Assembly (NCBI GenBank): GCA_947364715.1
Contig: CANAUI010000002.1
Location: forward strand, 13,124-77,123
Direction: 5' to 3'
Origin: an uncultured Clostridium sp.
GTDB taxonomy: Bacteria > Bacillota > Clostridia > TANB77 > CAG-508
DNA: 64,000 nt
Each line of letters begins with the position of its first letter. Position 1 is the first letter of the stretch. A model generated the notes under the pieces. That model did not search any database, was not told the DNA's origin, and saw nothing but the letters and a program-made list of their open reading frames with translations. Of this stretch, positions 3,301-61,842 are shown one piece after another. The translations under genes and the position numbers were made by a program.

Positions 3301-4147
3301 AGTTCCATCTCGTATGAACTTGGGTCAAGTACTAGAAGTTCACTTAGGAGGAGCAGCAAAAGCATTAGGATGGCAAGTATCTACACCAGTATTTGATGGT
3401 GCAACACAAGAAGATGTTGAAAAATTATTAGCAGAAGCTGGAATGAATAAAGATGGTAAAACAACATTATATGATGGTAGAACAGGAGAACAATTTGCAA
3501 CACCAATTACAGTAGGTGTTATGTATATGTTAAAACTACATCACTTAGTAGATGATAAAATACATGCTCGTTCAACAGGACCATACTCATTAGTAACACA
3601 ACAACCTTTAGGAGGAAAAGCACAATTTGGTGGACAACGTTTTGGAGAAATGGAGGTTTGGGCATTAGAGGCTTATGGTGCTTCATATACATTACAAGAA
3701 ATGTTAACTGTAAAATCTGACGATGTTGTTGGAAGAGTAAAAACATATGAAGCAATTGTTAAAGGAGAAAATGTTCCAGAGCCAGGTGTTCCAGAAAGCT
3801 TTAAAGTATTAGTTAAAGAGCTTCAATCTTTAGGATTAGATGTTAGATTATATTCTGAAGATAACCAAGAATTAGAATTAAAGGAAAATATAGAAGACGG
3901 AATTGAATATGACCCAGAAAAAGAAAAGAAATATTTAGCAGAAGATGAAGTTGTGGCAGATGGTGATTTAGAAGATGGATACACAGAAGAAAGTACAGAG
4001 GATGATATTTTATTAGATGATGATAATGATATGTTAGATGATGGAAATGATGAACTTTTTGAAGGTTTAGATGATGAAGATGATGAAATGTTCTTTGGTA
4101 GTGATTTGGCAGGGGATAATCTTGATAATGATAATGACATTATCTAA
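371..4147 (+). CDS. rpoB: DNA-directed RNA polymerase beta subunit with an extended acidic C-terminal tail
   Basis: 1258-aa ORF with classic RpoB blocks ([42 protein letters not shown]). rpoC follows immediately. The track start is non-ATG (GTG), so the exact start is uncertain. Confidence 0.97.
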
Positions 4148-23648: not shown

Positions 23649-23733
23649 GTGCCAAAATGCCCAGTCCCATTTTGGCAACTCTTTTCACAATGTGCCAAAT
23701 GGGACGGGGCATTTTGGCAACTTTTTTCACAAT
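23649..23733. repeat. Two tandem 42-43 bp units, each carrying a GC-rich REP-like palindrome
   Basis: Unit 1 is gtgccaaaatgcccagtcccattttggcaactcttttcacaat and unit 2 is gtgccaaatgggacggggcattttggcaacttttttcacaat. The stems are identical and the loops are near reverse complements of each other. Confidence 0.7.
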
Positions 23734-23807: not shown

Positions 23808-24587
23808 ATGCCAAGAACAGCAAGAAAGTATATAACAGGGTCCTTTTTTCATTTAATGACACAAGAAATCAATAGAGAATATATTTTTGAAAACAATAAA
23901 GATAAAGCAGTGTATGAAAAATTCATATTTCTATACAAAGATGAATTTGATGTTAATATATTATCATATTCTATTATGGATAATCACACACATATATTAA
24001 TCAAAGTTGAAACAGTTGAAAACATGTCAAAGTTCATGCACAAAGTAAACACTCAATATGCTATGTATTATAATAAAGAATATGATAGAACAGGATATGT
24101 TTTTAAAAATCGATACAAAGCACAAATGATTGACTCATGGAAACACTTATATAGATGTATAGATTATATTCATGATAACCCAGTAAAGGCCGGAATTTGT
24201 AAAAATAGGAATCAATATCAATATTCTAGTTTTACAAAATTATATCAAGATAGTCAGACAAAAGCGATGACAGTATTAGAAAGATATCTTAAAGATGGTC
24301 TTATAAATCAAAATCATGATAGAGATGAAAACACTTCAAAAGGCAATGATAATATAATTTTTTTAGAAAATACAGATGAAGATAAAAGAAGTATATGTCA
24401 AAAGGAAATAGATAAATATATACTAGAAAAACAAATAGACAAAAATATTTTGATAAAGAATAGAGAAAATTTAAGGGAAATAGTTATTAGGTTGAAATCT
24501 AAAAAGATTTCATATAGAATAATGTCAGAAAAATTAGGTATTGGAAGAGAAACATTAAGAAGATTGAATACAGAATTGAGTAAATAG
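23808..24587 (+). CDS. REP-associated tyrosine transposase-like protein (IS200-like Y1/HUH fold, COG1943 RayT type) with a C-terminal HTH-like tail
   Basis: The sequence fits the RayT consensus as I remember it: R..RK...G.FFH.M...(I)N...IF, the HUH motif MDNHTHILI, and GYVFKNRYKAQ.I with the catalytic Tyr region and YIH.NPVKAGI. The tail carries ISYRIMSEKLGIGRETLRRL. Confidence 0.8.
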   Translation: MPRTARKYITGSFFHLMTQEINREYIFENNKDKAVYEKFIFLYKDEFDVNILSYSIMDNHTHILIKVETVENMSKFMHKVNTQYAMYYNKEYDRTGYVFKNRYKAQMIDSWKHLYRCIDYIHDNPVKAGICKNRNQYQYSSFTKLYQDSQTKAMTVLERYLKDGLINQNHDRDENTSKGNDNIIFLENTDEDKRSICQKEIDKYILEKQIDKNILIKNRENLREIVIRLKSKKISYRIMSEKLGIGRETLRRLNTELSK

Positions 24588-25724
24588 ATGGGAGAGAATA
24601 TGGGAACAAGAATAAAGGAAGATTGTTATATAAAGGCAATAAAAACAATAAAGAAATATAGATTAATAAGTCCAGGAGACAAACTAGTTGTTGGTGTGTC
24701 AGGAGGACCTGATTCTATGTGTTTGTTAGAGATTTTGACAAGAATAAAACATCAAAGTTGCCAAAATGGCACGTCCCCTTTGGCAAGTTTTGATTTTGTG
24801 GTTGCCCATGTTAATCATATGATTAGAGAAGAAGCAAAAGAAGATGAACAATATGTCAAAAATTATTGTATAAAAAATGATATACAATTTTACACAAAAA
24901 GTATAGATGTTAAAAAAATGGCTAATACTAATAAAATCAGCATAGAAGAAGCTGGAAGAAATGCAAGACATGAATTTTTTTATGAAATATTACAGAAAGT
25001 AAGAGCAAATAAGATTGCTATTGCACATAACAAAAATGATAAAGTAGAGACCATAATTATGAATGAATTAAGAGGTTGTGGTATAAAAGGATTAAAAGGA
25101 ATTGAACCAGCAAGAGATAGATATATTAGGCCATTAATTGAATGTGAAAGAAAAGAAATAGAACAATATTGTGAAGAAAATAATATAAAACCAAGAATTG
25201 ATAAAACTAATTTTGAAAATATTTATACTAGAAACAAAATTAGAAATGTTGTTATTCCATATATAAAGAAAGAATTTAATCCTAATGTTATTGAAACAAT
25301 AAATAGACTTTCTGAACTTGTAATAGAACAAGAAGAATATATACAAAAACAAACTGAAAAGATTTATGAACAAATTGTTATAGAAGAAAATTTAAACTTA
25401 CAATTGCAAAAAGAAAATATTTCAACTAAACAGTTAATGGAGCAAGATAAAAAAACTATACAAGACAAAAAAACTGCACAAGATAATGAATATATTTTAT
25501 TAGATTTGAAAAGATTTAATGAACAAGAAAAAGTAATAAAATCAAATATAATTTTATATACTATAACAAGACTTTTTAATATGGGTAAAGGAATTGAGAA
25601 AATACATATAGAAGATATTATAAAATTATGTTTAAATAATGTTGGAAATAAATTTTTAATGCCAAATAAAAATTTGAAAATTTTTATTAAAAATGGACAA
25701 ATAAAAATTTCTAAGGAAGTATAA
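24588..25724 (+). CDS. tilS: tRNA(Ile)-lysidine synthetase
   Basis: PP-loop VGVSGGPDSMCLL plus HVNHMIREE. The start is either ATG 24588, which abuts the upstream TAG, or ATG 24600 after GGGAGAG. Confidence 0.9.
   Translation: MGENMGTRIKEDCYIKAIKTIKKYRLISPGDKLVVGVSGGPDSMCLLEILTRIKHQSCQNGTSPLASFDFVVAHVNHMIREEAKEDEQYVKNYCIKNDIQFYTKSIDVKKMANTNKISIEEAGRNARHEFFYEILQKVRANKIAIAHNKNDKVETIIMNELRGCGIKGLKGIEPARDRYIRPLIECERKEIEQYCEENNIKPRIDKTNFENIYTRNKIRNVVIPYIKKEFNPNVIETINRLSELVIEQEEYIQKQTEKIYEQIVIEENLNLQLQKENISTKQLMEQDKKTIQDKKTAQDNEYILLDLKRFNEQEKVIKSNIILYTITRLFNMGKGIEKIHIEDIIKLCLNNVGNKFLMPNKNLKIFIKNGQIKISKEV
24759..24785 (+). repeat. 27-nt REP-like palindrome inserted in-frame inside tilS
   Basis: tgccaaaatggcacgtcccctttggca is codon-aligned and encodes CQNGTSPLA. 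It belongs to the same family as the copies at 23650-23677 and 23693-23719. Confidence 0.65.
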
Positions 25725-29154: not shown

Positions 29155-29192
29155 AACAAGATATTAATAAAAAATTAATGTCTTGTTTTTTC
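29155..29192 (+). terminator. Rho-independent terminator after rpsU
   Basis: 14-bp stem aacaagatattaat / attaatgtcttgtt (one G-U pair) followed by T5. Confidence 0.75.
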
Positions 29193-29196
29193 ATAT

Positions 29197-29337
29197 TATA
29201 GAAAGTTCTCTGAACTTCCTATAACATAAAGCATTACACAGAAAATTGCTTTGCAATTTTAGCGGGTGAACAAAGACGAGGCATGAAGAGTAATCTAAAA
29301 GGTCATAAAATTTTAATCATGCCTCTTTTGTTCTATA
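29197..29337 (+). repeat. Modular intergenic repeat, copy C1 (modules 1-3)
   Basis: Module 1 is tata-gaaagttc..gaacttcc-tata. Module 2 is ataaagcattacacagaaaattgc-ttt-gcaatttt. Module 3 is gaacaaag..ggcatga..(loop)..tcatgcc..cttttgttc. See the related copies at 35428, 52463, 55928 and 61621. Confidence 0.6.
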
Positions 29338-29578
29338 TAAGTAAACTAAAAAATACAAAACTTTTAAACATATTTTTGCACATAGAAAACTAAATAAGGT
29401 TAATATTGTAATATAACTACTATGAATTGTAACAATATTATTAAATTTTCGTGACGTTTTATAAAATCATGTAGACAAATTTTGATATAAAATATATAAT
29501 AAAATCATAAAACTATATTATGTGATTAAAATATCAATAAATCACATAAAAATATAATAAAATAGGAGAAAAAAGGAA

Positions 29579-35230: not shown

Positions 35231-35427
35231 ATGTATTAACCTCCTATTAATATATATATTAACCTATTTTTAGCATATGATACAATAGGTTTGTGAATTT
35301 TATGTGAAGAAAATAGGATTTTTATAAAAAAAATCTAATATTATAGACAAAGTCAAAATAATATTGTAGAATAAATTCGTGGAAAACGATAATGAACAGA
35401 TGTAGTTTTGCCACCTTATTTTTATAT

Positions 35428-35529
35428 TATAAGAAAGTTCTCCGAACTTCCTATAATATAAAGCATTCCACAGAAAATCTTGACTCTATTTAAGATTTTT
35501 TTGTATACAACAAGATTAGATGTTTGTGG
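35428..35529 (+). repeat. Modular intergenic repeat, copy C2 (modules 1-2 intact, module 3 degenerate)
   Basis: tataagaaagttctccgaacttcctata followed by atataaagcattccacagaaaatctt..aagatttt. The module-2 stem sequence is changed but remains complementary. Confidence 0.5.
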
Positions 35530-35659
35530 ATTTGTCAATTTCTATATTTATGAATAAAAAGTCGAGAAATATAAAAAATTACTAATATAATTTGAGTAGG
35601 AAAAGGTTGAAAAATATATAATAAAAGCTACATAGAAAATAATAAAAGGTAAGAAAGGA

Positions 35660-36193
35660 ATGATAGAAAAAATGAAAGATAATAAAGGAATTACATTAAT
35701 AGCATTAGTAATTACAATAATAGTATTATTAATATTAGCAGGAATAACAATTAATACAGGAATGGAATCTATTAAAAAAGCAAATTTAGAGGGACTAAAA
35801 ACAAATATGTTATTAATTGAAACAAAAGCAAAAGAATATGTAGAAAATGCAAGCTTTAAATTAGGAGTTAATCCAAATACTGATACAATGTATGAGAAAG
35901 CCAAAGAAAACTTAGTTGGAGATGATAAAGGGGCAGTAGTTAATAGTGATGATGAAATTGTAAGTGATTTATTAAATATGGGAATTACTCAAGAGGACAT
36001 AAATAGAGGTAAAGTATATAAATTAACAACACAGAATTTAGAAAAAATGGGAATTAATAATGTACAATCTAATAATGATGAAGGCTGGTATGTTATAGTA
36101 TATAATATTGAAGATACATCAGCAGAAATATACTATACAAATGGATATCAAGGAAAATATTCTTTGACAGATATAGAGAAAATAGAAATATAA
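35660..36193 (+). CDS. Small pilin/pseudopilin-like protein (prepilin-type leader lacking Glu+5)
   Basis: N-terminus is MIEKMKDNKG|ITLIALVITIIVLLILAGITI, followed by a ~140-aa soluble domain. The alternative start is ATG 35672. Confidence 0.7.
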   Translation: MIEKMKDNKGITLIALVITIIVLLILAGITINTGMESIKKANLEGLKTNMLLIETKAKEYVENASFKLGVNPNTDTMYEKAKENLVGDDKGAVVNSDDEIVSDLLNMGITQEDINRGKVYKLTTQNLEKMGINNVQSNNDEGWYVIVYNIEDTSAEIYYTNGYQGKYSLTDIEKIEI

Positions 36194-42423: not shown

Positions 42424-44751
42424 TTATTTCTTTTCATTTTTCTTGAAATTGATAATAACAGCATCATCATTATCAAATAAATATTTAGAATCTGTAGTAT
42501 CTGTTTGTACTGGATTTATTTCATCTCTTGCATCTGTAAAGTCTAAATTTTTTAAATTAAATTTCTTTTTATATGAAGAATCATCTTCTGTGTCAGTAGT
42601 AGCACCATCAGAATATTTACCAAAATCAAAAGTTTTGATTTTTTGTTTTTCTTTATATTTAGATTCTAAGTAATTAAATCTACCAGGTCCTACCATTAAA
42701 CGTCCACCAATATCTTTAATTTTATATGCACACATTTTATCAGTAAGCATTCCTTGTAATTTTCCAGGTGAAAAGTAATTAACATATGACCATTTTACAT
42801 TACCATATTGAGGTGTATATTTCATTTTTTCAGTATCTAAGTTAACATTGTAAGTCCATTCTCTATGTGAGCCAAATTCTGCAGACCACCATTCTAATTC
42901 AGAAATAACAGCATTACCTGTAAATATTTTATTTGAACAGTTTGATAAAATTGTATGTTTATAATTTTCTCTAGATTTTGGTGTTTCTAATTGTGCTAAA
43001 TTTTGAGCTGAAATGACAGTTCCAACACGATATTTTCTATACATTGTAAAAATAGCTTCTGTTGCTTTACAAATAAAGTCAGGAAATTCATCAACATATA
43101 AGAAATTAGGAACTCTAGAATTTTCTACACCAGGTCTTCTTAAAACAGCATTTTGCATTGACATTAAGAAAAATAGTCCGAATGCTTGATGTGTAGAAGA
43201 GCCTAAATCACCACGTCTTGTACATACAAAGGTAATTTCTCCATTTGCAAGTGCTCTATCAAAATCAATATTGTTAAATCTATTACATAAAATAGATTTA
43301 ACACCAGGTAATCTTAAAAGATTATCTAATTGTGTAATTGCTGAATAAATATCTTTTTCAGTTTGGGCTTTTGCAGGTCCATCTTTATAAAAACATTTTC
43401 TAAAGTATGCAAGTTGTATAGAATATTTTTCTTTCAACTCTTCATCATGTGCTAATATTTCACACATTTTTTCTACTAATTCAAAATTAGTGAACATTTT
43501 TAACATATCTTCTATATTAGGTAGTGCACCTTCGTTCATTCTAGGGTACATTTCTTTTAGTAAAATAGCTAAGTTTTCAATAGCTTGAATAATAAAGTCT
43601 TCTCTGTATGCATCTTCAGTTTCTTCATGTGCATTACTATACATAGACTTTAAAGCAGAAGATATAGTAACTGCTATTTTTGAAGGCTCATCATAAACAA
43701 AAGGATTTAGTCCAACTGAATTAGGATTTGATGGGTCAATTATATTATATGTAAATCCATAATTATCACAAATTTGTATCATATGGTCAAGTAATTCATA
43801 ATCTGGAGACATAATTTCTAATCCTAAATTTTTATATACGTTTTTACCATCTAATGTTCCTAAAATCATCTTTTTCATATAAGCATTATAAACATCTTCT
43901 TTACCTTTAACAGGAGTAAGCATTTCTAATCTAAAGTTTTTGTTTAGATAATCATTATTATAAGGTTTATTTAAAAAGGCAATACCTGTTTTTAGAGCGG
44001 TAAATCCCATTTCTTTAGAAACTTCCCTAAAGAAGAATTTTTTCTCAATATCTCTAGCAATCATTGGTTCGAAAATTAAAGAAGTTTTCCCTGTTCCAGA
44101 ACCACCACATACAAATAATGATAAATATCTAGATACCTCTGGTATAATAATGGTTTTTCCAAAATCATTATCTGTACATAAAAATACTTCACAAGTATAT
44201 ACACCTCTGTCTTTTTTAGGGTCAGATAAATTAATACCTTTATAATCCCAAATAGAACGAACTTGGTCTAAGTTATCATTAATACCCATATATAGCCAAT
44301 TGAATAATGGGAATGCAGTAACTAATGGTAAATAAAGTGAAATACTACTAAATGCAGGTTTTACAATATCAGAAAAATTTGTAATTAAATCCACATAATC
44401 AGGAACAGAAAGTAATAATAACCAAGCTCCCATATTTAGCCATTGGGTAAACATCGAAACTGCAATGACATATAGTCCAATAACATATATGTAAAAGATT
44501 GCTACTTTTTTCATATTTGATGTTACAAATTCAGAATGACCTGAAAATAAAAATGCAAAAATTGGACATGCTAAAGCTAATGTATATTTTATAGGTCCCC
44601 AATAAGAGTAAGAAACACCTGTAAATATCATAAGAAGCATTTCAACAATACGGTCTACAGCTAAATATACAGTTAGTAATGTTAAAATATATGTTGCAAA
44701 AGTATTTCTACTTATATTTAATTTCTTTAAAAATTTATCTATGAATTTCAT
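42424..44751 (-). CDS. Orphan type IV coupling protein-like ATPase (VirD4/TraG/TraD family) with a 4-5 TM N-terminal region
   Basis: Walker A VCGGSGTGKTS (nt ~44084-44109), Walker B FLYVDEFPDF, and the T4CP-like block VISAQNLAQLE...ILSNCSNKIFTGNAV..E..WWSAEFG. The C-terminal tail is acidic. Confidence 0.75.
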   Translation of the reverse strand: MKFIDKFLKKLNISRNTFATYILTLLTVYLAVDRIVEMLLMIFTGVSYSYWGPIKYTLALACPIFAFLFSGHSEFVTSNMKKVAIFYIYVIGLYVIAVSMFTQWLNMGAWLLLLSVPDYVDLITNFSDIVKPAFSSISLYLPLVTAFPLFNWLYMGINDNLDQVRSIWDYKGINLSDPKKDRGVYTCEVFLCTDNDFGKTIIIPEVSRYLSLFVCGGSGTGKTSLIFEPMIARDIEKKFFFREVSKEMGFTALKTGIAFLNKPYNNDYLNKNFRLEMLTPVKGKEDVYNAYMKKMILGTLDGKNVYKNLGLEIMSPDYELLDHMIQICDNYGFTYNIIDPSNPNSVGLNPFVYDEPSKIAVTISSALKSMYSNAHEETEDAYREDFIIQAIENLAILLKEMYPRMNEGALPNIEDMLKMFTNFELVEKMCEILAHDEELKEKYSIQLAYFRKCFYKDGPAKAQTEKDIYSAITQLDNLLRLPGVKSILCNRFNNIDFDRALANGEITFVCTRRGDLGSSTHQAFGLFFLMSMQNAVLRRPGVENSRVPNFLYVDEFPDFICKATEAIFTMYRKYRVGTVISAQNLAQLETPKSRENYKHTILSNCSNKIFTGNAVISELEWWSAEFGSHREWTYNVNLDTEKMKYTPQYGNVKWSYVNYFSPGKLQGMLTDKMCAYKIKDIGGRLMVGPGRFNYLESKYKEKQKIKTFDFGKYSDGATTDTEDDSSYKKKFNLKNLDFTDARDEINPVQTDTTDSKYLFDNDDAVIINFKKNEKK

Positions 44752-44989
44752 TTAAAGTATCCTTTCAAAATTTATAGTCATACATATATATTATCCTACA
44801 AAACAGCTAAAAAAACAAGACTTTTTGCTAAATTTGTTTACCTAAAATTTCTTAAAGGTTAAAATTCATAGTCAAAAAAATATTTAAAAAAGTATAAAAT
44901 TTATAAAATCTATGTTATAATTGAAATACATTTAAATACTTGAAATATATATACTAAAAAGTAAGATAGATATAGAGGAGAAAAAGGAA

Positions 44990-46627
44990 ATGAGAGATAC
45001 AAAAGGGGTTACATTGATAGCACTTATAATTACAATTATTATATTATTAATATTAGCAGGAGTATCAATAGCAATGCTAACAGGTGATAATGGAATATTA
45101 AAAAATGCAAATAAATCAAAAGAAGCAACAGAGATATCAGAAGAAAAAGAAAAAGTAACAATGTCACAAAATGCAGATTTAGTAGCAAATCATGGTAAAA
45201 ATAACACAAAACAAGGATTACAACAAGAACTAGATAATATAGAAGGAATCAACAAAACAAAGGTAATAAAAGATGGAAAAGATAGTTATATAGTAACTTT
45301 TTTAGAAACCAATAGAAGTTATAGAATAAAAAATGGAAAAGAAATAGAAGGGCCAATAGACATAGAAATAGTAACAGATAATCAAGCAGGAGATATAACT
45401 AAAGGAAACACTTTAGATGGAACAAAAGAAAATCCATATAAAATAAATTGTATAGAAGATTTAGTAGATTTTTCAAACAAATCTAAAACAAATAATTTTT
45501 TAGGAAAAGAAATAATAATGACAAGAAATTTAGACTTCCAGTCAGAATTGTCTTATGAAGATTATCAAACAACTAAATATGGAGATATAAATAATGATGG
45601 CAAAATTAGTGAACTAATGGAAGAATTAACAACAGGTACAGGTTTTGAAACAATAAATATGTTTCAAGGAACTTTTGATGGAAAAAATAATAAACTAAAT
45701 AATTTATATATAAATTCAGACAAAGGTGTGATAGGATTTTTTAGTGAAATTAAGAATGCAACAATAAAAAACTTAATTATAAATGGAGAAATTTATTGTA
45801 GACGTACTGGAGTTGCTGGAGGAATAGTCGCATATGCGTCAGGAAATGTTTTGTTATATAATTTAGAATATAATGGAAAAATAGAAGTGACAGAAGATAT
45901 ATCTATGAATGCTATAGGAGGAATACTTGGATATGGAAAGAAAGATAGTCAGATAGAAATTAATCAATGTAGAAATAAAACTAATATAAATGAACAAGCA
46001 GATATAGGAGGTATTTGTGGAAAAACTGAAATAAAAATAAGAATTGTAAATTGCTATAATGAAGGTAATTTAACTGCGAAAGTAAAGAATGAAGACTCAA
46101 ATATACACTATTTTTCGATAGGGGGAATTATAGGAAGTGGAAAGGTAAGTTATATTAATATTGAAAATTGCTATAATAAAGGAAATATAGTAAATGAGTT
46201 AAATGGAACTTATAGTGGAGCAGGTGGAATAATTGGTGCTACAGGAAATTCAACAGTAAACATAAGCAATTGCTATAATATAGGAAAAACAAGTTCAAAA
46301 TATTCATATATAGCTCCATTTGCTGGAGGAATTCAGGGAGGATTTTGGTATGGGACCTATAAATCAATAATAAGTAATTGCTATTATGATGGTAATAAAA
46401 GTGATAGAAGTGTAGGTGGAGCAAAAGAAGAATATGCAACAAAGTTAACAACTGAACAAATGCAAGGAAAAGAAAATATAGAAAATCAAGATGGAACAAG
46501 TAGTACATTAGTAGAATTATTGAATAAAGAAATAGATAATAATACAAACAATATAGATACAACAGGTTGGTTAAAGTGGAAACAAGGAGAAGATGGTTAT
46601 CCAGATATTGATATGAGTAGTAATTGA
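44990..46627 (+). CDS. Pilin-like-leader protein with GLUG-motif repeats (adhesin-like)
   Basis: N-terminus is MRDTKG|VTLIALIITIIILLILAGVSI. The C-terminal half has repeated NCYN.G......GGI(I/L)G units typical of GLUG-motif domains. Confidence 0.75.
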   Translation: MRDTKGVTLIALIITIIILLILAGVSIAMLTGDNGILKNANKSKEATEISEEKEKVTMSQNADLVANHGKNNTKQGLQQELDNIEGINKTKVIKDGKDSYIVTFLETNRSYRIKNGKEIEGPIDIEIVTDNQAGDITKGNTLDGTKENPYKINCIEDLVDFSNKSKTNNFLGKEIIMTRNLDFQSELSYEDYQTTKYGDINNDGKISELMEELTTGTGFETINMFQGTFDGKNNKLNNLYINSDKGVIGFFSEIKNATIKNLIINGEIYCRRTGVAGGIVAYASGNVLLYNLEYNGKIEVTEDISMNAIGGILGYGKKDSQIEINQCRNKTNINEQADIGGICGKTEIKIRIVNCYNEGNLTAKVKNEDSNIHYFSIGGIIGSGKVSYINIENCYNKGNIVNELNGTYSGAGGIIGATGNSTVNISNCYNIGKTSSKYSYIAPFAGGIQGGFWYGTYKSIISNCYYDGNKSDRSVGGAKEEYATKLTTEQMQGKENIENQDGTSSTLVELLNKEIDNNTNNIDTTGWLKWKQGEDGYPDIDMSSN

Positions 46628-47491: not shown

Positions 47492-49333
47492 TTATTCTAC
47501 TGTAACAGATTTTGCCAAGTTCCTAGGCTTATCAACATCTAATCCTTTTTCCTTTGAAATATAATATGATAATAATTGTAAAGGAATAATTGACAAAATT
47601 GTTGAAATATATGGGCTAGTTTCAGGTATTTCTAACACAATATCAAACATAGAGTTATCAATTTTTTGATTTGTAACAATAAATGTTTTAGCTCCACGAG
47701 TAATAACTTCTTGAAGATTACTAATTGTTTTTTCAACTAAAGTAGAATCTGTCATAATTCCTACAACAGTTATATCTTTTTCTATTAAAGCGATTGGTCC
47801 ATGTTTTAATTCACCAGCAGGGTAACTTTCTGAATGAATATATGAAATCTCTTTTAATTTTAAAGACCCTTCTCTAGCAACGGTTTCATCTATACCTCTA
47901 CCTATAAAGAAGATATCTTTTTCTTGATAAATTTCTTTTGCAAAATTTTGAATTTTATTTTTTAATTTTAGACAGGTTTCAATTTTTGCTGGTAAATTTA
48001 AAATTTCTTTTTTTAGTTCATATAATTTTTCAGAATCTTTTTCCAATATTTCTGCAAAGTAAATAGCTAATATAACCATCAAAACAACTTGTGAAGTATA
48101 TGCTTTAGTAGAAGCAACTGCAATTTCTGGTCCAGCATGTGTATAAATAGAATAATCTGCTTCTCTTGTAATAGAACTTCCAATAACATTAGAAACTGCA
48201 AGTGTTTTAGCTCCTTTTTGCTTTGATAATTTTAAGGCAGCAATTGTATCAGCTGTTTCTCCTGATTGAGAAATAAAAATACATAATGTTTTATCATCAA
48301 TTAACGGATTTCTATACCTGAATTCAGAAGCAATATCTACTTCAGTCGGGATTTGGCAAAGTTTTTCAATAATATTTTTTCCTACTAATCCAGCATGCAT
48401 AGCTGTACCACAAGCAACAATATAAATTTTATTTAAACTTGATAAATATTCTTTTGTAAATTTTAATTCATCAAATTCACATTTTGAGTTTTCACTAAAT
48501 TTAGCTCCAATAGTTTCACGAATAGCAGTTGGTTGTTCATGAATCTCTTTTAGCATAAAATCTTCATAACCATTTTTTTCACTACTAGTAGCATTCCATT
48601 CTATATTTTGAGTTTTTTTATCTAATCTATTTAAATCTTTATCATAAAATTCAGCAGAATCTCTTGATAAAAATACATATTCAAAATCATTTAAAAGATA
48701 GAAATTTCTAGTAAATGACAAAATTGCTGGAATATCTGAAGAAATATAGTTTTCATCTATTCCTTTTCCAATAACTAAAGGACTATCTTTTCTAACAACA
48801 ATCATATTATCAGCAAAGTCTTTACAAAGGATTTCTAGAGCGAAACTTCCTTTTAAATCACAGCAAGCATTTTTTACTGATGTTAATAATTTAGTTTTTC
48901 CTGTTTCTTTTGTTTGTTTTGTATAATAATAGTGAATTAAATTTGGAATAACTTCTGTATCTGTATTAGAGTAAAAATTGTATCCATTATCTATTAAAAA
49001 TTTTCTTAATTCATTATAATTTTCTATAATACCATTATGAACAACACTAAATGTTTTTGAATTATCTTGATGTGGGTGTGCATTTTCCTTAGATGGTTTT
49101 CCATGTGTTGCCCATCTAGTATGTGCAATACCAATAGTACCTTTTAAATTATCAATGCCATCTAAATTATATAAATTTTTTACCCTTCCTTTATTTTTCA
49201 TTACAACTAAGCCTTCTGATTCAATAGTTGAAATACCAGCAGAGTCATAACCCCTGTATTCTAATCTTAAAAGTCCATTAATTAAAATTGGACTTGCTTT
49301 TTGTTTTCCTATATAACCTACAATTCCACACAT
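47492..49333 (-). CDS. glmS: Glutamine--fructose-6-phosphate aminotransferase
   Basis: MCGIVGYIG N-terminal nucleophile, two SIS domains, and the C-terminal LAKSVTVE. Confidence 0.97.
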   Translation of the reverse strand: MCGIVGYIGKQKASPILINGLLRLEYRGYDSAGISTIESEGLVVMKNKGRVKNLYNLDGIDNLKGTIGIAHTRWATHGKPSKENAHPHQDNSKTFSVVHNGIIENYNELRKFLIDNGYNFYSNTDTEVIPNLIHYYYTKQTKETGKTKLLTSVKNACCDLKGSFALEILCKDFADNMIVVRKDSPLVIGKGIDENYISSDIPAILSFTRNFYLLNDFEYVFLSRDSAEFYDKDLNRLDKKTQNIEWNATSSEKNGYEDFMLKEIHEQPTAIRETIGAKFSENSKCEFDELKFTKEYLSSLNKIYIVACGTAMHAGLVGKNIIEKLCQIPTEVDIASEFRYRNPLIDDKTLCIFISQSGETADTIAALKLSKQKGAKTLAVSNVIGSSITREADYSIYTHAGPEIAVASTKAYTSQVVLMVILAIYFAEILEKDSEKLYELKKEILNLPAKIETCLKLKNKIQNFAKEIYQEKDIFFIGRGIDETVAREGSLKLKEISYIHSESYPAGELKHGPIALIEKDITVVGIMTDSTLVEKTISNLQEVITRGAKTFIVTNQKIDNSMFDIVLEIPETSPYISTILSIIPLQLLSYYISKEKGLDVDKPRNLAKSVTVE

Positions 49334-49399
49334 AATATAAATCCTCCTAATTCTTTTTTGGAATTAAAGGTATGCAAATAAAACTTATATGTATAGATT

Positions 49400-49530
49400 T
49401 TTGTTACAATATTACTATTGTTTTTTTTATCAATACTTATGACCATAAGTGAAGGCCATTAGAGCATCCGCCGAATCTTTCGATAACTCTAAACCTCGTC
49501 AACACTATAAAATAGTGTCCAGGCGCTATA
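49400..49530 (-). ncRNA. glmS ribozyme/riboswitch in the glmS leader
   Basis: The minus strand reads AGCGCCUGGACACUAUUUUAUAGUGUUGACGAGGUUUAGAGUUAUCGAAAGAUUCGGCGGAUGCUCUAAUGGCC.... This matches the conserved AGCGCC..GACGAGG..GUUAUCGAA..UUCGGCGGAUGC core. The 3' boundary (P3/P4) is uncertain. Confidence 0.85.
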
Positions 49531-49809
49531 TATAATTTAAATATTTTCCCTCCTTGTAAAAATCTTTTTGCATACTTTTAATTTATTTCTATTTTATTAT
49601 ATTATAGTAAAGTAAAAAAATAAGCAAGTCCTTTATAAATTTTTAATAAAAATAATATTTAAAAAATATGTGTTAAAAATATTTATATATTGACTTTTTT
49701 CATGTATAATTAAATAAAATACAATAAAGTAACTATTTTTATATAAAAAATTTAGGTTTTAATTAAAAATCCTTATTTTAAGAGATATATACAAAAAAAT
49801 TAAGTAATC

Positions 49810-49910: not shown

Positions 49911-50489
49911 ATGGATTATAAAAAGATTTTTACTGAAAATGATTTAACAAATATTGCTAAATTTTTTACTTATATGCAAAATAAGTTTGAGTATGGTTGG
50001 ATTGATAAAGATGGAAATAGACACTATGGAATTAATGATGCTCAATCTTATAGTTTACAATCACCTAACGAATTGTTAAAAAGCCATATAGGAATTTGCT
50101 GGGATATGGCAGAGTTATCTAGATGTTTTTTTGAAAATATGACTTCTTTAAAATATGAAACTTATTATCTATTGTATGATGATAATAAAGGTTGTCCTAG
50201 CCATACTATCTTAGTATTTTACGACAAAAATAAAGTCTATTGGTTTGAACCTATGTTTAATGATAAAAATTGTTTTTATAGTGGTATACATGAATATGAT
50301 AATATTACTAAATTACTGGAAGACTTTAAACACACTTTTATTAAAAGTGCAGTGACTAATGAGTTAATCCCGATTGATTATAATTCATCTAATATTCAAA
50401 TATATAAATACACTGCACCTAAAAAGCATATTAATGGTTATGAAATGCGAAATCATATTAATAATAGTGAATTTATAAATATCAAATAG
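49911..50489 (+). CDS. Cytoplasmic transglutaminase-like / papain-fold protein (putative Cys-His pair)
   Basis: GICWDMAELSRCFF (candidate nucleophile Cys), SHTILVFY (His) and WFEP have the order and spacing typical of transglutaminase-core folds. The assignment is tentative. Confidence 0.5.
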   Translation: MDYKKIFTENDLTNIAKFFTYMQNKFEYGWIDKDGNRHYGINDAQSYSLQSPNELLKSHIGICWDMAELSRCFFENMTSLKYETYYLLYDDNKGCPSHTILVFYDKNKVYWFEPMFNDKNCFYSGIHEYDNITKLLEDFKHTFIKSAVTNELIPIDYNSSNIQIYKYTAPKKHINGYEMRNHINNSEFINIK

Positions 50490-52417: not shown

Positions 52418-52462
52418 AAAGGAAAAGTTTTAAACTTCTCCTTTTTGTTGTAATATAGGAAA

Positions 52463-52571
52463 AAATTGCTTTTTCCTATACTACAAAAATACATTGTACA
52501 CAAAATTGCAAGCAATTTTGGTATGTGAACAATGACGCAGAATTTAGAAATGCTTAAACAAGATAAAAAGT
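52463..52571 (+). repeat. Modular intergenic repeat, copy C3
   Basis: tataggaaaaaattgctttttcctata (perfect module-1 hairpin), then cattgtacacaaaattgc-aa-gcaattttgg, then a truncated module 3 (gtgaacaatgac...). Confidence 0.55.
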
Positions 52572-52780
52572 TAGTATAAATTTTTAGTAAGAAAATTTAT
52601 AGAAAAAAACCATAATTTGACTTTATGTAAAGCTAGATGTTATAATATATAGTGAAGTTTTTTGAGAATTATTACAATATTAATATAGTAACATGTATTT
52701 AGTATTAATAAATATGAATGAAGTTTACTTTTTTAATTTAGTATTATTAAATATTGTCTTATAGAAAGGGATGATTATAA

Positions 52781-55700
52781 ATGAAACCTATAGATAAAAT
52801 ATCAATAGCAGAAATGGAAGATATTTATAAAATATTAGAATTAGGAGATTTGGGGCATATTATAAATTTAGAAAAAATTGAAAAAATAGAAAAAGCCAGA
52901 AGAAATAAATTTCTTACTGAATTTATAGAAACGCAAAAAGGTATAATAGAAAGTACAAATATAAGTGATGAAGAAAAAATGGAAGTTTTTGTTCAATATG
53001 AGAAGTTTGCAGAAGGTAAAATAGAAGAAATAAATGAAAAACAAAGAGGATATATAAAGGCTGAATATAGAGATTTTGTGAAAAGAATAGGAACAGAAAT
53101 AATAATGGAAGAAATTATTATTAAATGGAGTAATTTTATACAAAATAATGCAAATAAAATCAATAAAAATGATATATTAATTGAATTTATGAAAGAAAAC
53201 GAAGATGATATAGATAAGGAAAAGGCCTTATTAATTTCTTTACAAAAACATCTAGAATTAAAAGACACATTAGGTGGTAAAAATAACTCAGAATATGGAA
53301 AATATTTTCAAGATAAAGAAAAAATACAAAAAAACATAGAAAAACTTAAAAAAATGGGAGAAGAGTTCTTAAAAGGTCGAGATATTTCCATTAGTAGATT
53401 GGAGTATCAGAAAACTATTAATAAGGTAAAAGAAGGAGAACATTGTAGAATAAAGGTAACTTCTAGTAAAGAACTTTCAGAAGAAAATTCATTATCTGAA
53501 GCTGAACGTAAACAAATAAGACAACAGGAAAGAGAAACCAAAAAACATATATATAGTCTTCCAAATAAAGCAGTTGCAATAGCATTATCCATTACAACTA
53601 ACATACATGGTCCATTAAAGAAAAATATATTTAATGCTGAAGATTTAGAAATACATATAGGAGATGCAATAAAATTTAATATTGAGTCAGAAGGAATTAT
53701 TGCAGAAGACCAATGGGATAAAATGTCTAGTACTTATCAAATAGATTTAAGTAAAGATTTTGCTAAAGAAGTTTTTAAAGGAATAGAAAAATATATTAAT
53801 GTAGATAAAATGTGTTTAACATCTTTTGTATACATAGTTGGAAAATTAGAGAAAGGTGAGATTTTGTACACAGATGGTACATGGGCACAAGAAGATGAGA
53901 AAAAAAGATATGGTACCAAAGATGAAAAACAAAAATATGAAGATTTAAATTATGAAGAACTATATTTAGAAGCTGAACAATATTTACAAAATTACTATAA
54001 TGTAATAAAAGATAAAGATATAGAAATAGTTATTAATGGAGAAAAATATACAACAGGATATGCTACAGAAGCTATGAAAAAATATATTGATGGAAGATAT
54101 ATGTCATCAAGTATGATGGCAAATATAATTGATTTATTAGTATCTGATAGAAAAACAATCGTTAATCTTACTAAAAATCAATTACAATATATTAGACAGG
54201 AACTTATTAATGTTGGAGCTATAATATTAAAGGAAGATGTAAAAACACTGATAGAAGTAGGAATATTTGATAAATCAACTATTTTAAAACTATACGAAAA
54301 TAGACAAATTGATTTGGAAATTATTAGTGAAATAAAAGGAAGCTTAGATTTAAAAAGTGAAGTAACACCTGAATTTATATTACAACAATTTGATAAATTA
54401 ATGGTGTTAGATGAAGAAAATGAACAATATGAAAAAGAAACTATCAAAAACAATTTTAGCTTATATAAAGAATTATATTTAAAAGGAAAATCAGAAGAAG
54501 AATTAGAAGAGTCAGGAAAAGCTTTAATAGAAGCAATAAATAGGGAAGTACAAGCAGATAAAGAAAAGTCAGAAGAATATAGACAAGAAGGTTTATTAAG
54601 ATATAAATTAATGTCTGAAAGAACATATGCAATATTAACCTCTAAAGGAATTGTAAAACCAGAAAATCTTATAAATATGTATCAAAAAAATGTTATTAGT
54701 ATAGAAACAATAGAACAATTAAAAGAAGAAGGCATTTCTTTTGATAATTTAAATATAGAAGAACAAATTATTGATAGTTATATAAAAATAAGAGAAGAAA
54801 AAGACCCAGATATTGAAGAATTAAAAAAATATATTACTTTATATAAAACATTACAATCAAAAGAATTATCAGAAGAAGATAGAATAGAAGAGGCAAATGA
54901 ATTTATTTGTGAAATAGGAGATAGAATTGAAAATAATGTAAAAGCAGGAAAACAAAAGAGAGAATTTGGAGCAGAAGATAGAGAACGACTATATGAATTA
55001 GGAGTGATTCCACTTGAGACATGGGTAGAATGGAGCGAAAAGGAAGAAATAATTGACATATTAAAAAGAGGAACATTAGTACCAAAAGATATAAGAAAAT
55101 TATATCAAGACAATAGAATTTTATTAAAAGATTTTGAAAAAATTATAAATTCACACAGTATAGAACTATTCCAAAAATTTCATTTGCTTAATACAGTATT
55201 TTCAAGTCATGAGGATGCTGAAATAAGACAAAAATTAATGGGTAAAATAGAAGGGTTAGAAGCTACAGTTAATTCAAGTGACTCAAGTAATTCAACTAAT
55301 TCCAAAAAGAGAATTAATAATGAAGAAGTAGAGTCAGAAGGTACAAATAAAGTTAATGGAAATAAATATATTTTTGACACAGCAGAAAGGTATAATGCTT
55401 GGATTGAAGCAGATGAAAAAGTTGCAATTTCATTATTAGATGATGGTCATGTTGTATTCCAATTACCAAATGTAAGAGGTGGTATAGCAGTTATAGAACA
55501 ACTATATGAAGTAAAAAATGTTAATATAAATGGTAAAAATGAAAAGATATTAGTAGATAAATATGGAACTAAGGGTTATGTTTTAACATTAGATGAATAT
55601 GATGAATTCAAAGAGAAGTTTACAACAGCAGATAACAGAATAAACAGGTCTAAATTAATAAACATTGAAAAACAGTTACCAAGTTTAGAAGATAAAGGTA

Positions 55701-55927
55701 TAACAAGAGAACTAAGACATTTCAAACATAAATATATAAGAGATATCCAAACATTGTTAGGTGTACCAGAGGATTTAACATTAGCAACAACTGATAAAGG
55801 ATTAGAAAAATCTATAAAAAGAATAGAAGATAGTACTGAATATACCCCAGAGGAAAAAGAAAGAATATTAAAAATTTATGCACTTTGGGAACAAGTTAAA
55901 CAGAGTAGAGATTCTTATAGAGAATAA
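52781..55927 (+). CDS. Large (1048 aa) cytoplasmic protein of unknown function
   Basis: Long uninterrupted ORF with genome-typical codon usage and an upstream GAAAGGGA SD. No signal peptide, TM segment, P-loop or nuclease motif was recognised. It looks helical and is rich in K and E. Confidence 0.7.
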   Translation: MKPIDKISIAEMEDIYKILELGDLGHIINLEKIEKIEKARRNKFLTEFIETQKGIIESTNISDEEKMEVFVQYEKFAEGKIEEINEKQRGYIKAEYRDFVKRIGTEIIMEEIIIKWSNFIQNNANKINKNDILIEFMKENEDDIDKEKALLISLQKHLELKDTLGGKNNSEYGKYFQDKEKIQKNIEKLKKMGEEFLKGRDISISRLEYQKTINKVKEGEHCRIKVTSSKELSEENSLSEAERKQIRQQERETKKHIYSLPNKAVAIALSITTNIHGPLKKNIFNAEDLEIHIGDAIKFNIESEGIIAEDQWDKMSSTYQIDLSKDFAKEVFKGIEKYINVDKMCLTSFVYIVGKLEKGEILYTDGTWAQEDEKKRYGTKDEKQKYEDLNYEELYLEAEQYLQNYYNVIKDKDIEIVINGEKYTTGYATEAMKKYIDGRYMSSSMMANIIDLLVSDRKTIVNLTKNQLQYIRQELINVGAIILKEDVKTLIEVGIFDKSTILKLYENRQIDLEIISEIKGSLDLKSEVTPEFILQQFDKLMVLDEENEQYEKETIKNNFSLYKELYLKGKSEEELEESGKALIEAINREVQADKEKSEEYRQEGLLRYKLMSERTYAILTSKGIVKPENLINMYQKNVISIETIEQLKEEGISFDNLNIEEQIIDSYIKIREEKDPDIEELKKYITLYKTLQSKELSEEDRIEEANEFICEIGDRIENNVKAGKQKREFGAEDRERLYELGVIPLETWVEWSEKEEIIDILKRGTLVPKDIRKLYQDNRILLKDFEKIINSHSIELFQKFHLLNTVFSSHEDAEIRQKLMGKIEGLEATVNSSDSSNSTNSKKRINNEEVESEGTNKVNGNKYIFDTAERYNAWIEADEKVAISLLDDGHVVFQLPNVRGGIAVIEQLYEVKNVNINGKNEKILVDKYGTKGYVLTLDEYDEFKEKFTTADNRINRSKLINIEKQLPSLEDKGITRELRHFKHKYIRDIQTLLGVPEDLTLATTDKGLEKSIKRIEDSTEYTPEEKERILKIYALWEQVKQSRDSYRE

Positions 55928-56039
55928 TATAAAGCATTCCATAGAAAATTGCAAAGTAATTTTTGCGGACGAACAAAGACAGGGCATGTAAATAATCTAA
56001 AAGATTAAAATATCTTATATCATGCCCCTTTTGTTCTAT
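55928..56039 (+). repeat. Modular intergenic repeat, copy C4 (modules 2-3)
   Basis: tataaagcattccatagaaaatt..aattttt, then gaacaaagacagggcatg..(loop containing aatctaaaag)..catgccccttttgttc. Confidence 0.6.
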
Positions 56040-60709: not shown

Positions 60710-61327
60710 TTGATAGATACAATTTGTACATGTTTAACTAATAAAATACGAAAAGAAATGCCAGAAATAGATGATGAAAGAGCAGAAGTAATTAATTATG
60801 GATTACAAAATATAGTAGGAGAGATACCTAAAGTATTTTTAGTGTTTGTTATTGCATTTATTTTAGGAATGTTAAAAGAAGTATTATTTATGTTTATTGC
60901 ATTAACACCATATAGGGGAGCATCTGGTGGGTTTCATTTAAAAACACACTTAGGATGTATAGTAGGAACAACAACATTTTACTGTGGAATTGTATTTTTA
61001 TCACAACATATTATCTTACAAGATATAACAAAATATATTTTGATAGGAATTAGTTGGATATTTGGAATGATTATGATAAAACTTTATGCACCAGCAGATA
61101 CAGAAAATGTTCCAATATTATCTAAAAAAGATAGAAAAAGAAAACAAATAATAGCATATATTACATATTCAATTGGTCTTATTTGTGCTTTGATAATTTC
61201 AAATAATGTAATTTCTAATATTCTATTATTTGGAAATATTTTACAAACTTTAACAATAACCAAATTAGCATATAGATTAACAAAAAATAAATATGGATAT
61301 GAAGTGTATGGTGATGCTTCAGTTTAA
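60710..61327 (+). CDS. agrB: AgrB-family autoinducing-peptide processing membrane protease
   Basis: Polytopic, with ...YGLQNI... and the hallmark R.ASGGFHLKTH (R..GG.H) motif. TTG start after a GAGGTGA SD. Confidence 0.85.
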   Translation: MIDTICTCLTNKIRKEMPEIDDERAEVINYGLQNIVGEIPKVFLVFVIAFILGMLKEVLFMFIALTPYRGASGGFHLKTHLGCIVGTTTFYCGIVFLSQHIILQDITKYILIGISWIFGMIMIKLYAPADTENVPILSKKDRKRKQIIAYITYSIGLICALIISNNVISNILLFGNILQTLTITKLAYRLTKNKYGYEVYGDASV

Positions 61328-61388
61328 AAAAGTTTAAAATACATATATTAATATGTTTTTAAAAATATATAATAAGGGGGAATCTACT

Positions 61389-61508
61389 ATGTTCAAATTT
61401 TTATCTAAAATAGCAGAGAAATATGCTAAAGCAACTAATACAGCTTGTTTAGTATTATTTACATTACATCAACCAAAAATGCCAGAAAGTATGATGAAAA
61501 AGGATTAG
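61389..61508 (+). CDS. agrD: AgrD-type autoinducing peptide precursor (39 aa, missing from the ORF track)
   Basis: AAGGGGG SD upstream. My translation is MFKFLSKIAEKYAKATNTACLVLFTLHQPKMPESMMKKD. It has an amphipathic leader, a single Cys core and an HQP..PE recognition tail. It lies directly downstream of agrB. Confidence 0.75.
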   Translation: MFKFLSKIAEKYAKATNTACLVLFTLHQPKMPESMMKKD

Positions 61509-61592
61509 TAAATTGGCAAAAGTAGGACGTAATATTATTTTTGCCAAATGTTATATAACCTGAAAAGTTATATATTTGCAATCCAATATAAG

Positions 61593-61618
61593 ACAGCTTT
61601 TCTAAGCTGTTTTTTTTA
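61593..61618 (+). terminator. Rho-independent terminator after agrD
   Basis: acagctt-ttct-aagctgt followed by T8. Confidence 0.8.
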
Positions 61619-61620
61619 TA

Positions 61621-61769
61621 TATTAGGAAAGTCATACTGACTTTTCTAATATATAAAACACATTGCACACAAATTTATTTCATAAATTTGGCACACGAAC
61701 AAATTAACGGAAAGCCAAAGAAGAAATTTAAAATTAGTTAAAATATTAAGGCTTTCCGATTTGTTCTAG
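61621..61769 (+). repeat. Modular intergenic repeat, copy C5 (diverged, structure retained)
   Basis: attaggaaagtca-tac-tgacttttctaat, then cacattgcacacaaatttat-ttc-ataaatttgg, then gaacaaat..cggaaagcc..(loop)..ggctttccgatttgttc. Confidence 0.5.
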
Positions 61770-61800
61770 TATAGGAAACTGCGACATGCATGTCGTACTA

Positions 61801-61833: not shown

Positions 61834-61842
61834 ATAATCTTA

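Follow-up and report, generated by a model that had tools for sequence, protein, structure and literature searches.

Background

What kind of genetic element is a unit of ~140-155 bp that folds into three hairpins, recurs between genes and keeps its stems paired while their sequences change? The question is raised by a 64,000-nt stretch of contig CANAUI010000002.1 (assembly GCA_947364715.1) of an uncultured Clostridium sp., hereafter the window, which has a G+C content of 26.4% and carries nearly all of its genes on the + strand. A first-pass annotation of this stretch had noticed five copies of a modular hairpin repeat and left its nature undecided. Interspersed structured repeats such as REP (repetitive extragenic palindrome), BIME (bacterial interspersed mosaic element), BOX, ERIC and Correia shape transcription, mRNA stability and genome rearrangement, and nearly all that are known to us come from cultured Proteobacteria, with some from a few Firmicutes. 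We describe the element as a new, clade-specific family of bacterial interspersed structured repeats of the REP/BIME/BOX kind with an unusual and sharply defined terminator-proximal niche. As to its nature, we favour, with a confidence that is about even, a mobile DNA repeat that is non-autonomous and recognised by its structure, with terminator T-tracts as its target and a trans-acting enzyme as its mover.

Results and discussion

Anatomy of the element and its five copies in the window

Both the sequence and a covariance model scan bear out the five copies, c1 to c5, at the sites first reported and all on the + strand (Table 1). The model, R1, covers module 2 of the three modules originally described (here hairpins HP1, HP2 and HP3) together with the GAACAA box, and both strands of the 64 kb were scanned with filters off. 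Four copies (c1, c3, c4, c5) score 54-67 bits (E 4e-13 to 4e-10) and c2 has an E-value of 0.42, while the next-best match, weak reverse-strand echoes of the same palindromic hairpins excepted, reaches 14.1 bits (E ~1).

Refinement on ~130 copies gave the following anatomy. HP1 is a nearly perfect AT-rich palindrome of 40-46 nt with the consensus TTTTATAT(A/T)TAGGAAAG-loop-CTTTCCTA(A/T)ATATAAAA, and its 5' T-run coincides with the T-tract of the terminator that precedes it. The first-pass annotation had rightly seen a palindromic hairpin at this place but had drawn it too short, as the palindrome extends over TTTTATATATTAGGAAAG..CTTTCCTAATATATAAAA. In some subfamilies a mini-hairpin GGCTTCGCC follows. 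HP2 has the consensus ACATT-n-Y-ACA-S-AAAWTTnn-loop-nnAAWTTT-S'-GC-R-n'-R-C, and in every copy its lower stem holds an A·C opposition and a bulged A (ACA against GC), an invariant internal loop that suggests the kind of feature a protein reads. HP3 starts with GAACAAA(G/T), a bulge of 2-5 nt on the 5' arm and an inner stem of 8-9 bp and, after a loop of 4-60 nt, ends with the inner-stem partner and (T/A)TTTGTTC, usually followed by T. Its outer stem is a helix, as had been proposed, but the pairing gaacaaaG/Ctttgttc given for it is really GAACAAA(G)/(T)TTTGTTC, with a G·T or an unpaired G beside a 2-nt AC bulge. The inner stem comes in at least five types, with 31 distinct 3' arms.

All three modules occur in c1 and c5 only, and module 3 is complete in three of the five window copies (c1, c4 and c5). 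In c2, the lead-in of HP2, CATTCCACAG, is followed by a divergent hairpin (35474-35499), GAACAA and HP3 being absent; this copy lies in a divergent promoter region. Of HP3, c3 retains only the 5' arm (GAACAATG, 52527-52534), with decay thereafter, and its spacing is identical in 10 further contigs of the same species. The HP1-less c4 starts directly at the stop codon of ORF (open reading frame) 52781-55927 and ends 36 nt ahead of uvrC. Family-wide, too, many copies are without HP1 or without the 3' half of HP3; the element is modular, as first described.

Table 1. Coordinates of the element copies and of other features in the 64,000-nt window
Feature	Positions	Strand	Description	HP1	HP2	HP3	R1 score (bits)	Fold z-score
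c1	29193-29334	+	subfamily A, full	29196-29224	29232-29267	29268-29333	57.0	-3.65 (RNA), -5.5 (DNA)
c2	35421-35500	+	partial	35421-35462			15.8
c3	52448-52545	+	truncated	52448-52486	52492-52526		54.4	-1.4
c4	55928-56037	+	no HP1		55935-55970	55971-56036	57.7	-4.49
c5	61614-61767	+	subfamily D, full	61614-61658	61661-61696	61697-61766	66.9	-9.8
Remnant after c5	61768-61803	+	HP1 left arm TAGTATAGGAAA, then CTGCGACATGCATGTCG, then TACTATT
HP1 right arm ACTTCCTATAATATA	e.g. 29214-29228, 35446-35460
Terminator abutted by c1	~29155-29192
agrD terminator, directly 5' of c5	61590-61613
Host promoter downstream of c1	29472-29500		near-consensus
Host promoter downstream of c2	35562-35591		near-consensus
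Host promoter downstream of c3	52617-52646		near-consensus, TTGACT-18-TATAAT
RAYT-like gene	23808-24587	+	259-aa HUH protein, between dnaB and tilS
Hairpin X, two copies	23649-23722		upstream of RAYT-like gene
Hairpin X, one copy	24747-24785		in tilS
tilS ORF	24588-25724
ORF of 3257 aa	8367-18140	+	repeat protein
Segments in pilin-like ORFs	35670-35751, 44988-45069		N-terminal methylation motif
775-aa protein	42424-44751	-	TraG-D_C domain
glmS	47492-49333	-
glmS ribozyme (RF00234)	49381-49538	-	upstream of glmS
Segment absent from L139	49750-50846		includes 192-aa ORF 49911-50489
ORF of 1048 aa	52781-55927	+	K/E-rich ORFan
agr-type locus	60710-63937

Compensatory changes in all three hairpins

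The claim that stems change in compensation was borne out well beyond the five copies, with strong covariation in HP1, HP2 and HP3. For HP2 (91 sequences, 74 distinct), 97.2% of the cells in paired columns are standard pairs, against 77.3% with shuffled partners (0 of 500 shuffles reach the observed value) and 30-51% when partners are slid by 1-3 columns. Six HP2 pairs have changes on both sides, for example 13-36 (G-C/C-G), 17-32 (A-U/U-A), 20-29 and 21-28 (four pair types) and 8-41 (G-C/C-G/U-A). The HP2 seeds were chosen by pattern plus a 6-nt complementarity filter, which inflates the pairing of 13-36 to 18-31; pairs 7-42, 8-41, 9-39, 19-30, 20-29 and 21-28 are free of this bias.

In HP1, double changes occur in 7 of the 13 consensus pairs (e.g. 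arms ATATTAGG/CCTAATAT, ATTATAGG/CCTATAAT and GTTGTATAG/CTATACAAC), a count that leans towards pairing because the HP1 sequences were taken as the best palindrome upstream of HP2. Native HP3 hairpins comprise 22 bp (median) and fold at -17.5 kcal/mol on average. Arm-swapped chimeras, in which the two halves stem from different copies, average -10.6 kcal/mol, and only 7% of them reach the native median. Within subfamily A, the HP3 inner stem varies as GAGG/CCTC, GTGG/CCAC, GGGG/CCCC and GGAG/CTCC. Moreover, relative to dinucleotide shuffles the fold z-scores of c1, c2, c4 and c5 range from -3.65 to -9.8, the truncated c3 having the weakest value (Table 1). The covariation of the three hairpins supports the proposal that selection acts on hairpin structure over primary sequence.

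A niche between terminator and promoter

HP1 is recognisable in 83 family copies, 12 of which directly follow another element. Among the 71 solitary ones, 48 have a hairpin (dG of -5 kcal/mol or lower) ending at most 5 nt from HP1, compared to 19% for shuffled flanks, and several further ones have a strong hairpin 6-15 nt from HP1; a copy in locus L222 follows the same terminator rule on the other strand. In the window, obvious terminators precede c1, c3 and c5, and near-consensus host promoters lie downstream of c1, c2 and c3. A copy thus typically stands behind the terminator of one gene and ahead of the promoter of the next. A consensus scan found no sigma-70-like promoter inside any window copy, whereas neighbouring host genes have near-perfect ones.

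That all copies are intergenic and share one orientation holds within the window, but family-wide the orientation is an 86% bias and not a rule: between co-directional genes, 64 copies are co-oriented with the genes and 10 opposed. Copies between convergent genes (24) are 2.4 times as numerous as those between divergent genes (10). The ten antisense copies are opposed to the genes around them and to the local GC3 skew (skew at third codon positions) alike, so that the bias is attributable to neither transcription nor replication specifically. In copies just upstream of a start codon (L025, L037, L060, L073 and L093), the 3' half of HP3 is missing.

Distribution and database comparisons

The element is abundant and not confined to the region of the window, in line with the first-pass expectation. 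A degenerate pattern scan of one genome per species matched at least 111 blocks; among the matches listed, ~100 blocks contain true copies and eight are chance matches in unrelated phyla. True copies occur in at least 47 species-level metagenome-assembled genomes (MAGs) labelled uncultured Clostridia or Clostridium, one of them named Candidatus Scatovivens, with a G+C content of 25-31% and from the gut of humans (including Hadza), goat, water deer, wild mouse and rabbit. Covariance-model scanning of 697 kb of related loci (8-kb blocks, numbered here with the prefix L, with ORFs called heuristically by the longest-ORF rule) gave 133 matches in dozens of MAGs, and one MAG has at least 33 copies within ten 8-kb blocks. 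Against the hundreds per genome that the first-pass annotation had thought possible, the copies seen number dozens. Conversely, only two weak matches were found in 365 kb around AgrB homologues of more distant relatives, indicating that the family is clade-restricted; one of these two is a clear full copy behind the terminator of a convergent gene.

As anticipated, the element has no Rfam match: the glmS ribozyme is the sole gathering-level match in the window, and E-value scans of c1, c5 and an array against Rfam 15 gave sub-threshold chance matches, mostly to eukaryotic miRNA and snoRNA hairpin models, so that a known RNA family was rejected. Searches of the literature with element sequence strings and keywords returned no relevant match. 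Phage or plasmid cargo was likewise dismissed, a pattern scan of viral contigs giving chance matches only and blastn against phages and plasmids none. A type I toxin-antitoxin module (Sib/Ibs-like) finds no counterpart, as no ORF is common to the subfamilies on either strand; in the HP3 loop, for instance, c1 has an ATG after which c4 reads TAA. Likenesses to a CodY box, parS and a sigma-54 motif, judged by eye, failed on half-site order or spacing in each case. As to HP1 being an independent mini-MITE (miniature inverted-repeat transposable element), a crude palindrome scan of the loci gave only one clear solo HP1 besides that of L150 (see below), and this candidate was dropped. The first 15 nt of S. 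aureus dif, i.e. the XerC arm and spacer (PMC11040001), equal the HP1 right arm ACTTCCTATAATATA of subfamilies A and B. Because the arms of HP1 face outward, no second (XerD-like) arm follows and the window contains no full dif, a dif/Xer site was rejected, and the identity is probably a coincidence of AT-rich sequence.

Turnover of single copies and persistence of subfamilies

Orthologous sites differ in occupancy. After agrD, the window has c5 plus a remnant (61618-61803), whereas the site measures 7 nt in the sister-species contig L149, whose flanks match those of the window at 85-90%. In L150 the place is taken by a solo HP1-like palindrome, in L151 by a remnant of the HP1 left arm, and in L152 by a group II intron that begins with GTGCG (GTGCGACAGG…) right after the T-run. 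The site after ftsH is empty in the window and filled by a type-B copy in L121 and a type-E copy in L088. Upstream of a RAYT-like gene (REP-associated tyrosine transposase; see below), L110 holds a full copy between ...TATACTTATTTT and TGTATTTAAAAT, and L229, L231, L232 and L235 are empty at the same hairpin and T-run. The c2 site is filled in the window and empty in the orthologous region of L082, and upstream of truA L093 has a 3'-truncated copy and the window none. Polymorphism between strains at c3, c4 and c5 was looked for and discarded, same-species contigs being identical at these sites.

In the remnant behind c5, the 17-mer CTGCGACATGCATGTCG is identical at 15 of 17 positions to GTGCGACAGGCATGTCA, the 5' end of the group II intron in L152 (~3895-3912). 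This fragment may be the relic of a group II intron formerly inserted at this place.

Single copies come and go, and subfamilies persist. Copy c1 shares 92% identity with its counterpart in L031, from another species, and c5 91-92% with copies in yet another, compared to 65% between c1 and c5; coding genes of those genomes are 72-86% identical to those of the window. Together, cross-species copy identity and site turnover show that several subfamilies coexist per genome and are common to several species while single insertions change. In several MAGs the element also forms head-to-tail arrays of 2-4 near-identical units with a period of 141-143 nt.

The stereotyped place between a terminator and the next promoter would also fit structural or insulating modules selected by the host and spread by recombination or duplication instead of dedicated mobility, be it as back-up terminators, as barriers between transcription units or as binding sites of nucleoid or replication proteins. 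HP3 resembles a long terminator, its 3' half is missing upstream of start codons as if termination were selected against there, and the invariant ACA/GC loop, like CGAACAA, points to a protein that binds specifically. Nevertheless, we consider this explanation improbable, since copies come and go too rapidly between sister species to suggest necessity at any one site, the majority of the window's terminators are free of the element, the slightly more distant relatives are without the family (two weak matches in 365 kb), and near-identical copies at unrelated loci would still require a mobility mechanism.

Structure at the level of DNA or of RNA

With RNA parameters, the reverse strand is the more stable one in 70 of 81 copies, by a mean of 3.7 kcal/mol, mostly because the invariant A·C of HP2 reads G·U on the other strand. 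Isolated mismatches number 8 of the A·C type versus 6 of the G·T type in HP1, and 6 versus 2 in HP3; outside the invariant A·C they are balanced, without strand asymmetry in HP1 or HP3. With DNA parameters, c1, c4 and c5 fold about equally on both strands.

The role as a 3' untranslated region or small RNA (sRNA), one of the options left by the first-pass annotation, is weakened by the location of the copies after terminators and before the next promoter and by their lack of a sigma-70-like promoter. In its most explicit form, this alternative takes the element for a multi-copy sRNA gene family (~110 nt) or for processed read-through RNAs. The right arm of HP1 would act as a weak -10-only promoter (TATAAT or TAATAT), HP2 as a 5' protein-binding stem-loop, and HP3 as a terminator whose large, subfamily-specific loop is the seed or recognition region; HP3 is terminator-like in some subfamilies only, its loop exceeding the limit of the terminator scan. 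Several observations agree with the sRNA reading: the conserved ACATT with which HP2 begins is preceded, at a distance of 6-20 nt, by TATAAT-like hexamers; the inner stem of HP3 is G+C-rich in subfamilies A and C and is followed by TTTTGTTCT; and the 86% co-orientation with neighbouring genes fits. Moreover, the 91-92% identity of whole elements between species, loops included, is more easily explained by the function of a product, tandem sRNA gene arrays exist in other bacteria (LhrC, Qrr), and since the invariant A·C is G·U on the opposite strand, an RNA from the antisense strand is conceivable.

Other observations speak against an sRNA. Neighbouring host genes have near-perfect promoters and the window copies none; several subfamilies have a '-10' without the final T (TATACA, TACAAC) and yet retain the palindrome, so that the constraint appears to be symmetry and not promoter sequence; and HP1 has the T-tract of the preceding terminator for its 5' arm, an odd arrangement for a gene. 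Orthologous loci of sister species do not retain copies, many copies are without HP1 or the 3' half of HP3, a net G·U excess on the + strand is absent, and gaps between convergent genes hold more copies than those between divergent ones. We therefore rate an RNA-level family as unlikely, although not negligible. The strand tests, the lack of a shared ORF or promoter, the site outside transcription units and the rapid turnover favour a structure-recognised repeat at the level of DNA.

RAYT-like genes and hairpin X

A possible mobilising enzyme is encoded in the window itself. The 259-aa product of the RAYT-like gene matches Pfam Y1_Tnp with 47 bits and, over its full length, the NCBIfam model 'REP-associated tyrosine transposase' with 64.8 bits, below the cut-off of 80; its HUH motif reads NHTHIL and its tyrosine motif GYVFKNRY. 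The gene is flanked by a separate repeat, hairpin X, with the stem GTGCCAAAATG/CATTTTGGCAAC and the core GGGAC(N)GG (Table 1), and its orthologue in L121 has the same flanking. A paralogous RAYT-like family counts 1747 homologues (E ≤ 1e-10), one of them named RayT by a source, and has a conserved GH15-RAYT-gap context, in which GGGACAGGCAC lies upstream and its reverse complement downstream. This arrangement looks like a REPtron in Clostridia. Hairpin X stands on both sides of RAYT-like genes in the window and L121 as well as in five other loci (L229, L231, L232 and L235 among them); many contigs with RAYT-like genes are only ~1 kb long.

Could the three-hairpin element be the REP or REPIN substrate of the window's RAYT-like HUH transposase, and the whole an ordinary REP-RAYT system? 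The gene carries both the HUH and the tyrosine motif, a full element lies 33 nt upstream of its paralogue in L110, and enzymes of this type (IS608 TnpA, RayT) read hairpins in which extrahelical bases are conserved. It is, however, hairpin X that flanks the RAYT-like genes in the classical REPtron arrangement, and the L110 copy has been inserted where four orthologous loci have an empty site. Moreover, 42 kb around the RAYT genes of relatives contain hairpin X and no three-hairpin copy, the element is not a short G+C-rich palindrome and forms no inverted doublets, and the NCBIfam score stays below the curated cut-off. Such a system is very improbable in our judgement. Since hairpin X flanks the RAYT genes and the 42 kb around those of relatives are without the element, RAYT-like enzymes are candidates at best for moving it.

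Hairpin X occurs at 0.12 cores/kb and is sometimes the 'terminator' that precedes the element, but a coupling of the two was rejected, as there is no enrichment beyond their shared intergenic location. In L026 (2575-2860) and L121 (6500-6745), an element is bracketed by two inverted hairpin-X terminators, giving a large composite palindrome. The hairpin-X copy in tilS is in frame and encodes ..HQSCQNGTSPLASF..; tilS of the L121 orthologue has the equivalent extra segment CQKKAGPMASF, which recalls the Rickettsia palindromic elements that are inserted into genes.

A proposed mobile repeat directed to terminator T-tracts

Two of the first-pass options, a 'BIME-like composite REP' and a 'structure-recognised mobilisation site', fit these data best. 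Beyond what was observed, our reading infers three things: recognition of the structure at the DNA level, a trans-acting enzyme and the T-tract as target. According to this model, the element would propagate as DNA, and its three hairpins, single-stranded or extruded, would be the recognition signal for the trans-acting enzyme, with the invariant ACA/GC internal loop of HP2 and the GAACAA…TTGTTC base of HP3 as the key features. New copies would be placed in one orientation, directly 3' of the T-tract behind an intrinsic-terminator hairpin, and the element's own A-run would pair with the target T-tract and thereby extend HP1. Because HP3 plus TTTTGTTC looks like a terminator, copies could follow one another, and unequal exchange would then yield the head-to-tail arrays.

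The turnover of copies, together with the 91-92% subfamily identity between species, follows a pattern typical of propagating lineages. In addition, the clade appears to possess hairpin-dependent HUH machinery, to judge from its RAYT-like genes with their own flanking repeat.

A number of results count against such mobility. No target-site duplication was seen at any filled/empty site pair compared (e.g. the window and L149, or L110 and L229-L235); with neither this nor another transposition footprint, precise deletion could mimic empty sites. Whole subfamilies are conserved, loops included, beyond what recognition by an enzyme needs, which could mean a cellular function of each copy type. Arrays of near-identical units can arise by duplication without transposition, and the 64:10 orientation bias cannot separate transcription from replication. 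All-against-all clustering of the 641 ORFs next to copies gave housekeeping orthologues only, without a recurrent transposase or recombinase, and no autonomous parent element with tnpA or tnpB and matching ends was found next to copies. The absence of the element around the relatives' RAYT genes belongs to the same side of the balance.

Comparison with known systems

In S. pneumoniae, the boxA-boxB-boxC elements (and RUP and SPRITE) are, like the present family, modular structured intergenic repeats of 100-200 bp in a low-GC Firmicute, at about one copy per 15-20 kb, without an encoded protein and with modules that can be missing. The element differs by having no internally repeated boxB-like module, by its occurrence in uncultured Clostridia, by its strict placement behind the T-tract of a terminator and by its head-to-tail arrays of whole units. 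With REP, BIME and REPIN sequences it shares extragenic hairpins with compensatory stems at gene 3' ends, a BIME-like mosaic build and a RAYT-like gene in the same genome. In contrast to the G+C-rich palindrome of 20-40 nt with a GTAG head, however, it measures 150 nt with three AT-rich hairpins, is solitary or head-to-tail and never an inverted doublet, and leaves the flanks of the RAYT-like genes to hairpin X.

As for transposable elements, a MITE was rejected, as TTTTATAT… and …TTGTTCT, the two ends, do not form inverted repeats and the filled/empty pairs show no target duplication. Palindrome-associated elements (PATEs) of the IS200/IS605 group of insertion sequences, and the single-strand transposition of IS608, come to mind on the side of mechanism. 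They, too, lack terminal inverted repeats and target duplication, have subterminal hairpins at both ends with conserved extrahelical bases, insert in a single orientation 3' of a short target (for the element, apparently the T-run) and show an orientation bias along the chromosome. Unlike in a PATE, the left and right hairpins are dissimilar (HP1 and HP3 are unrelated in sequence), the apparent target is a terminator hairpin plus T-run and not a fixed tetranucleotide, and the 641 ORFs beside copies include no matching autonomous insertion sequence. Class C group II introns also insert in one orientation right after intrinsic-terminator hairpins, and the intron of L152 occupies the very c5 site, but the element is devoid of ribozyme domains, of a GUGYG start and of a reverse transcriptase, and its 150 nt are far too few for self-splicing. 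The guide-target pairing of IS608 and group II introns is loosely analogous to the A-run/T-run pairing proposed here.

The integron attC site resembles the element in its bulged two-box helix (outer GAACAAA/TTTGTTC, inner variable stem), variable loop, kept structure and same-orientation arrays. It was nonetheless rejected: AAC/GTT stands at the outer and not the inner end of the helix, the flanks (G/C)(G/A)(C/T)GAAC…GTTCTAT misfit RYYYAAC/GTTRRRY, and the neighbours are housekeeping genes, without cassette ORFs or an intI among them. Because it fails the defining tests for REP-RAYT, MITE, attC, a PATE with known parent and every Rfam family, the element was classed as a new repeat family. It is also conceivable, albeit rather doubtful, that it embodies a novel principle, either a protein-less three-hairpin unit that recognises a terminator hairpin plus T-tract (its own A-run pairing with the T-run, through an enzyme class new to such repeats) or a fast-turning-over structured-RNA family whose subfamilies are kept across species.

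In these uncultured gut Clostridia, a widespread lineage (humans, ruminants, rodents, rabbits), the family is abundant and will confound the annotation of genes, sRNAs and terminators. It probably confounds MAG assembly as well, given the similar effect at RAYT-like genes flanked by hairpin X, whose contigs are ~1 kb. The sharp insertion site, the shared subfamilies and the covariation moreover offer a clean system in which to study target choice by protein-less hairpin elements and the host enzyme. If the element is mobile, terminator-specific targeting might be of practical use as a 'safe-harbour' insertion principle.

Other features of the window

The gene order is rpoB, rpoC, a 3257-aa repeat protein, gdpP, rplI, dnaB, the Y1 HUH protein, tilS, ftsH, a DnaJ-domain protein, a C1 peptidase with Big_3 repeats, htrA, rnhB, a pyrimidine nucleoside phosphorylase, cdaA, truA, glmS with its ribozyme (92.9 bits), uvrC and the agr locus. 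The 3257-aa ORF consists of ~20 degenerate repeats of 75-90 nt with the motif YGIYN..TGTININGGEI. In the agr-type quorum-sensing locus, agrB and a 39-codon agrD are convergent to genes for a histidine kinase (HATPase_c_5) and a LytTR response regulator, and c5 lies between the two convergent terminators. The 775-aa protein has a TraG-D_C (coupling-protein) domain and adjoins pilin-like ORFs that share an 83% identical N-terminal segment with a methylation motif.

Strains of the species differ in part of this region, contig L139 (99% identical) being without ~1.1 kb that includes a 192-aa ORF. The ORF between c3 and c4 encodes a 1048-aa K/E-rich ORFan, which the truncated c3 precedes and the HP1-less c4 directly follows; as it has no Pfam, PDB or homologue matches beyond its own species, it was rejected as an element-encoded enzyme. 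In some strains (L139, L140) this ORFan is present as a nonsense allele of 702 aa.

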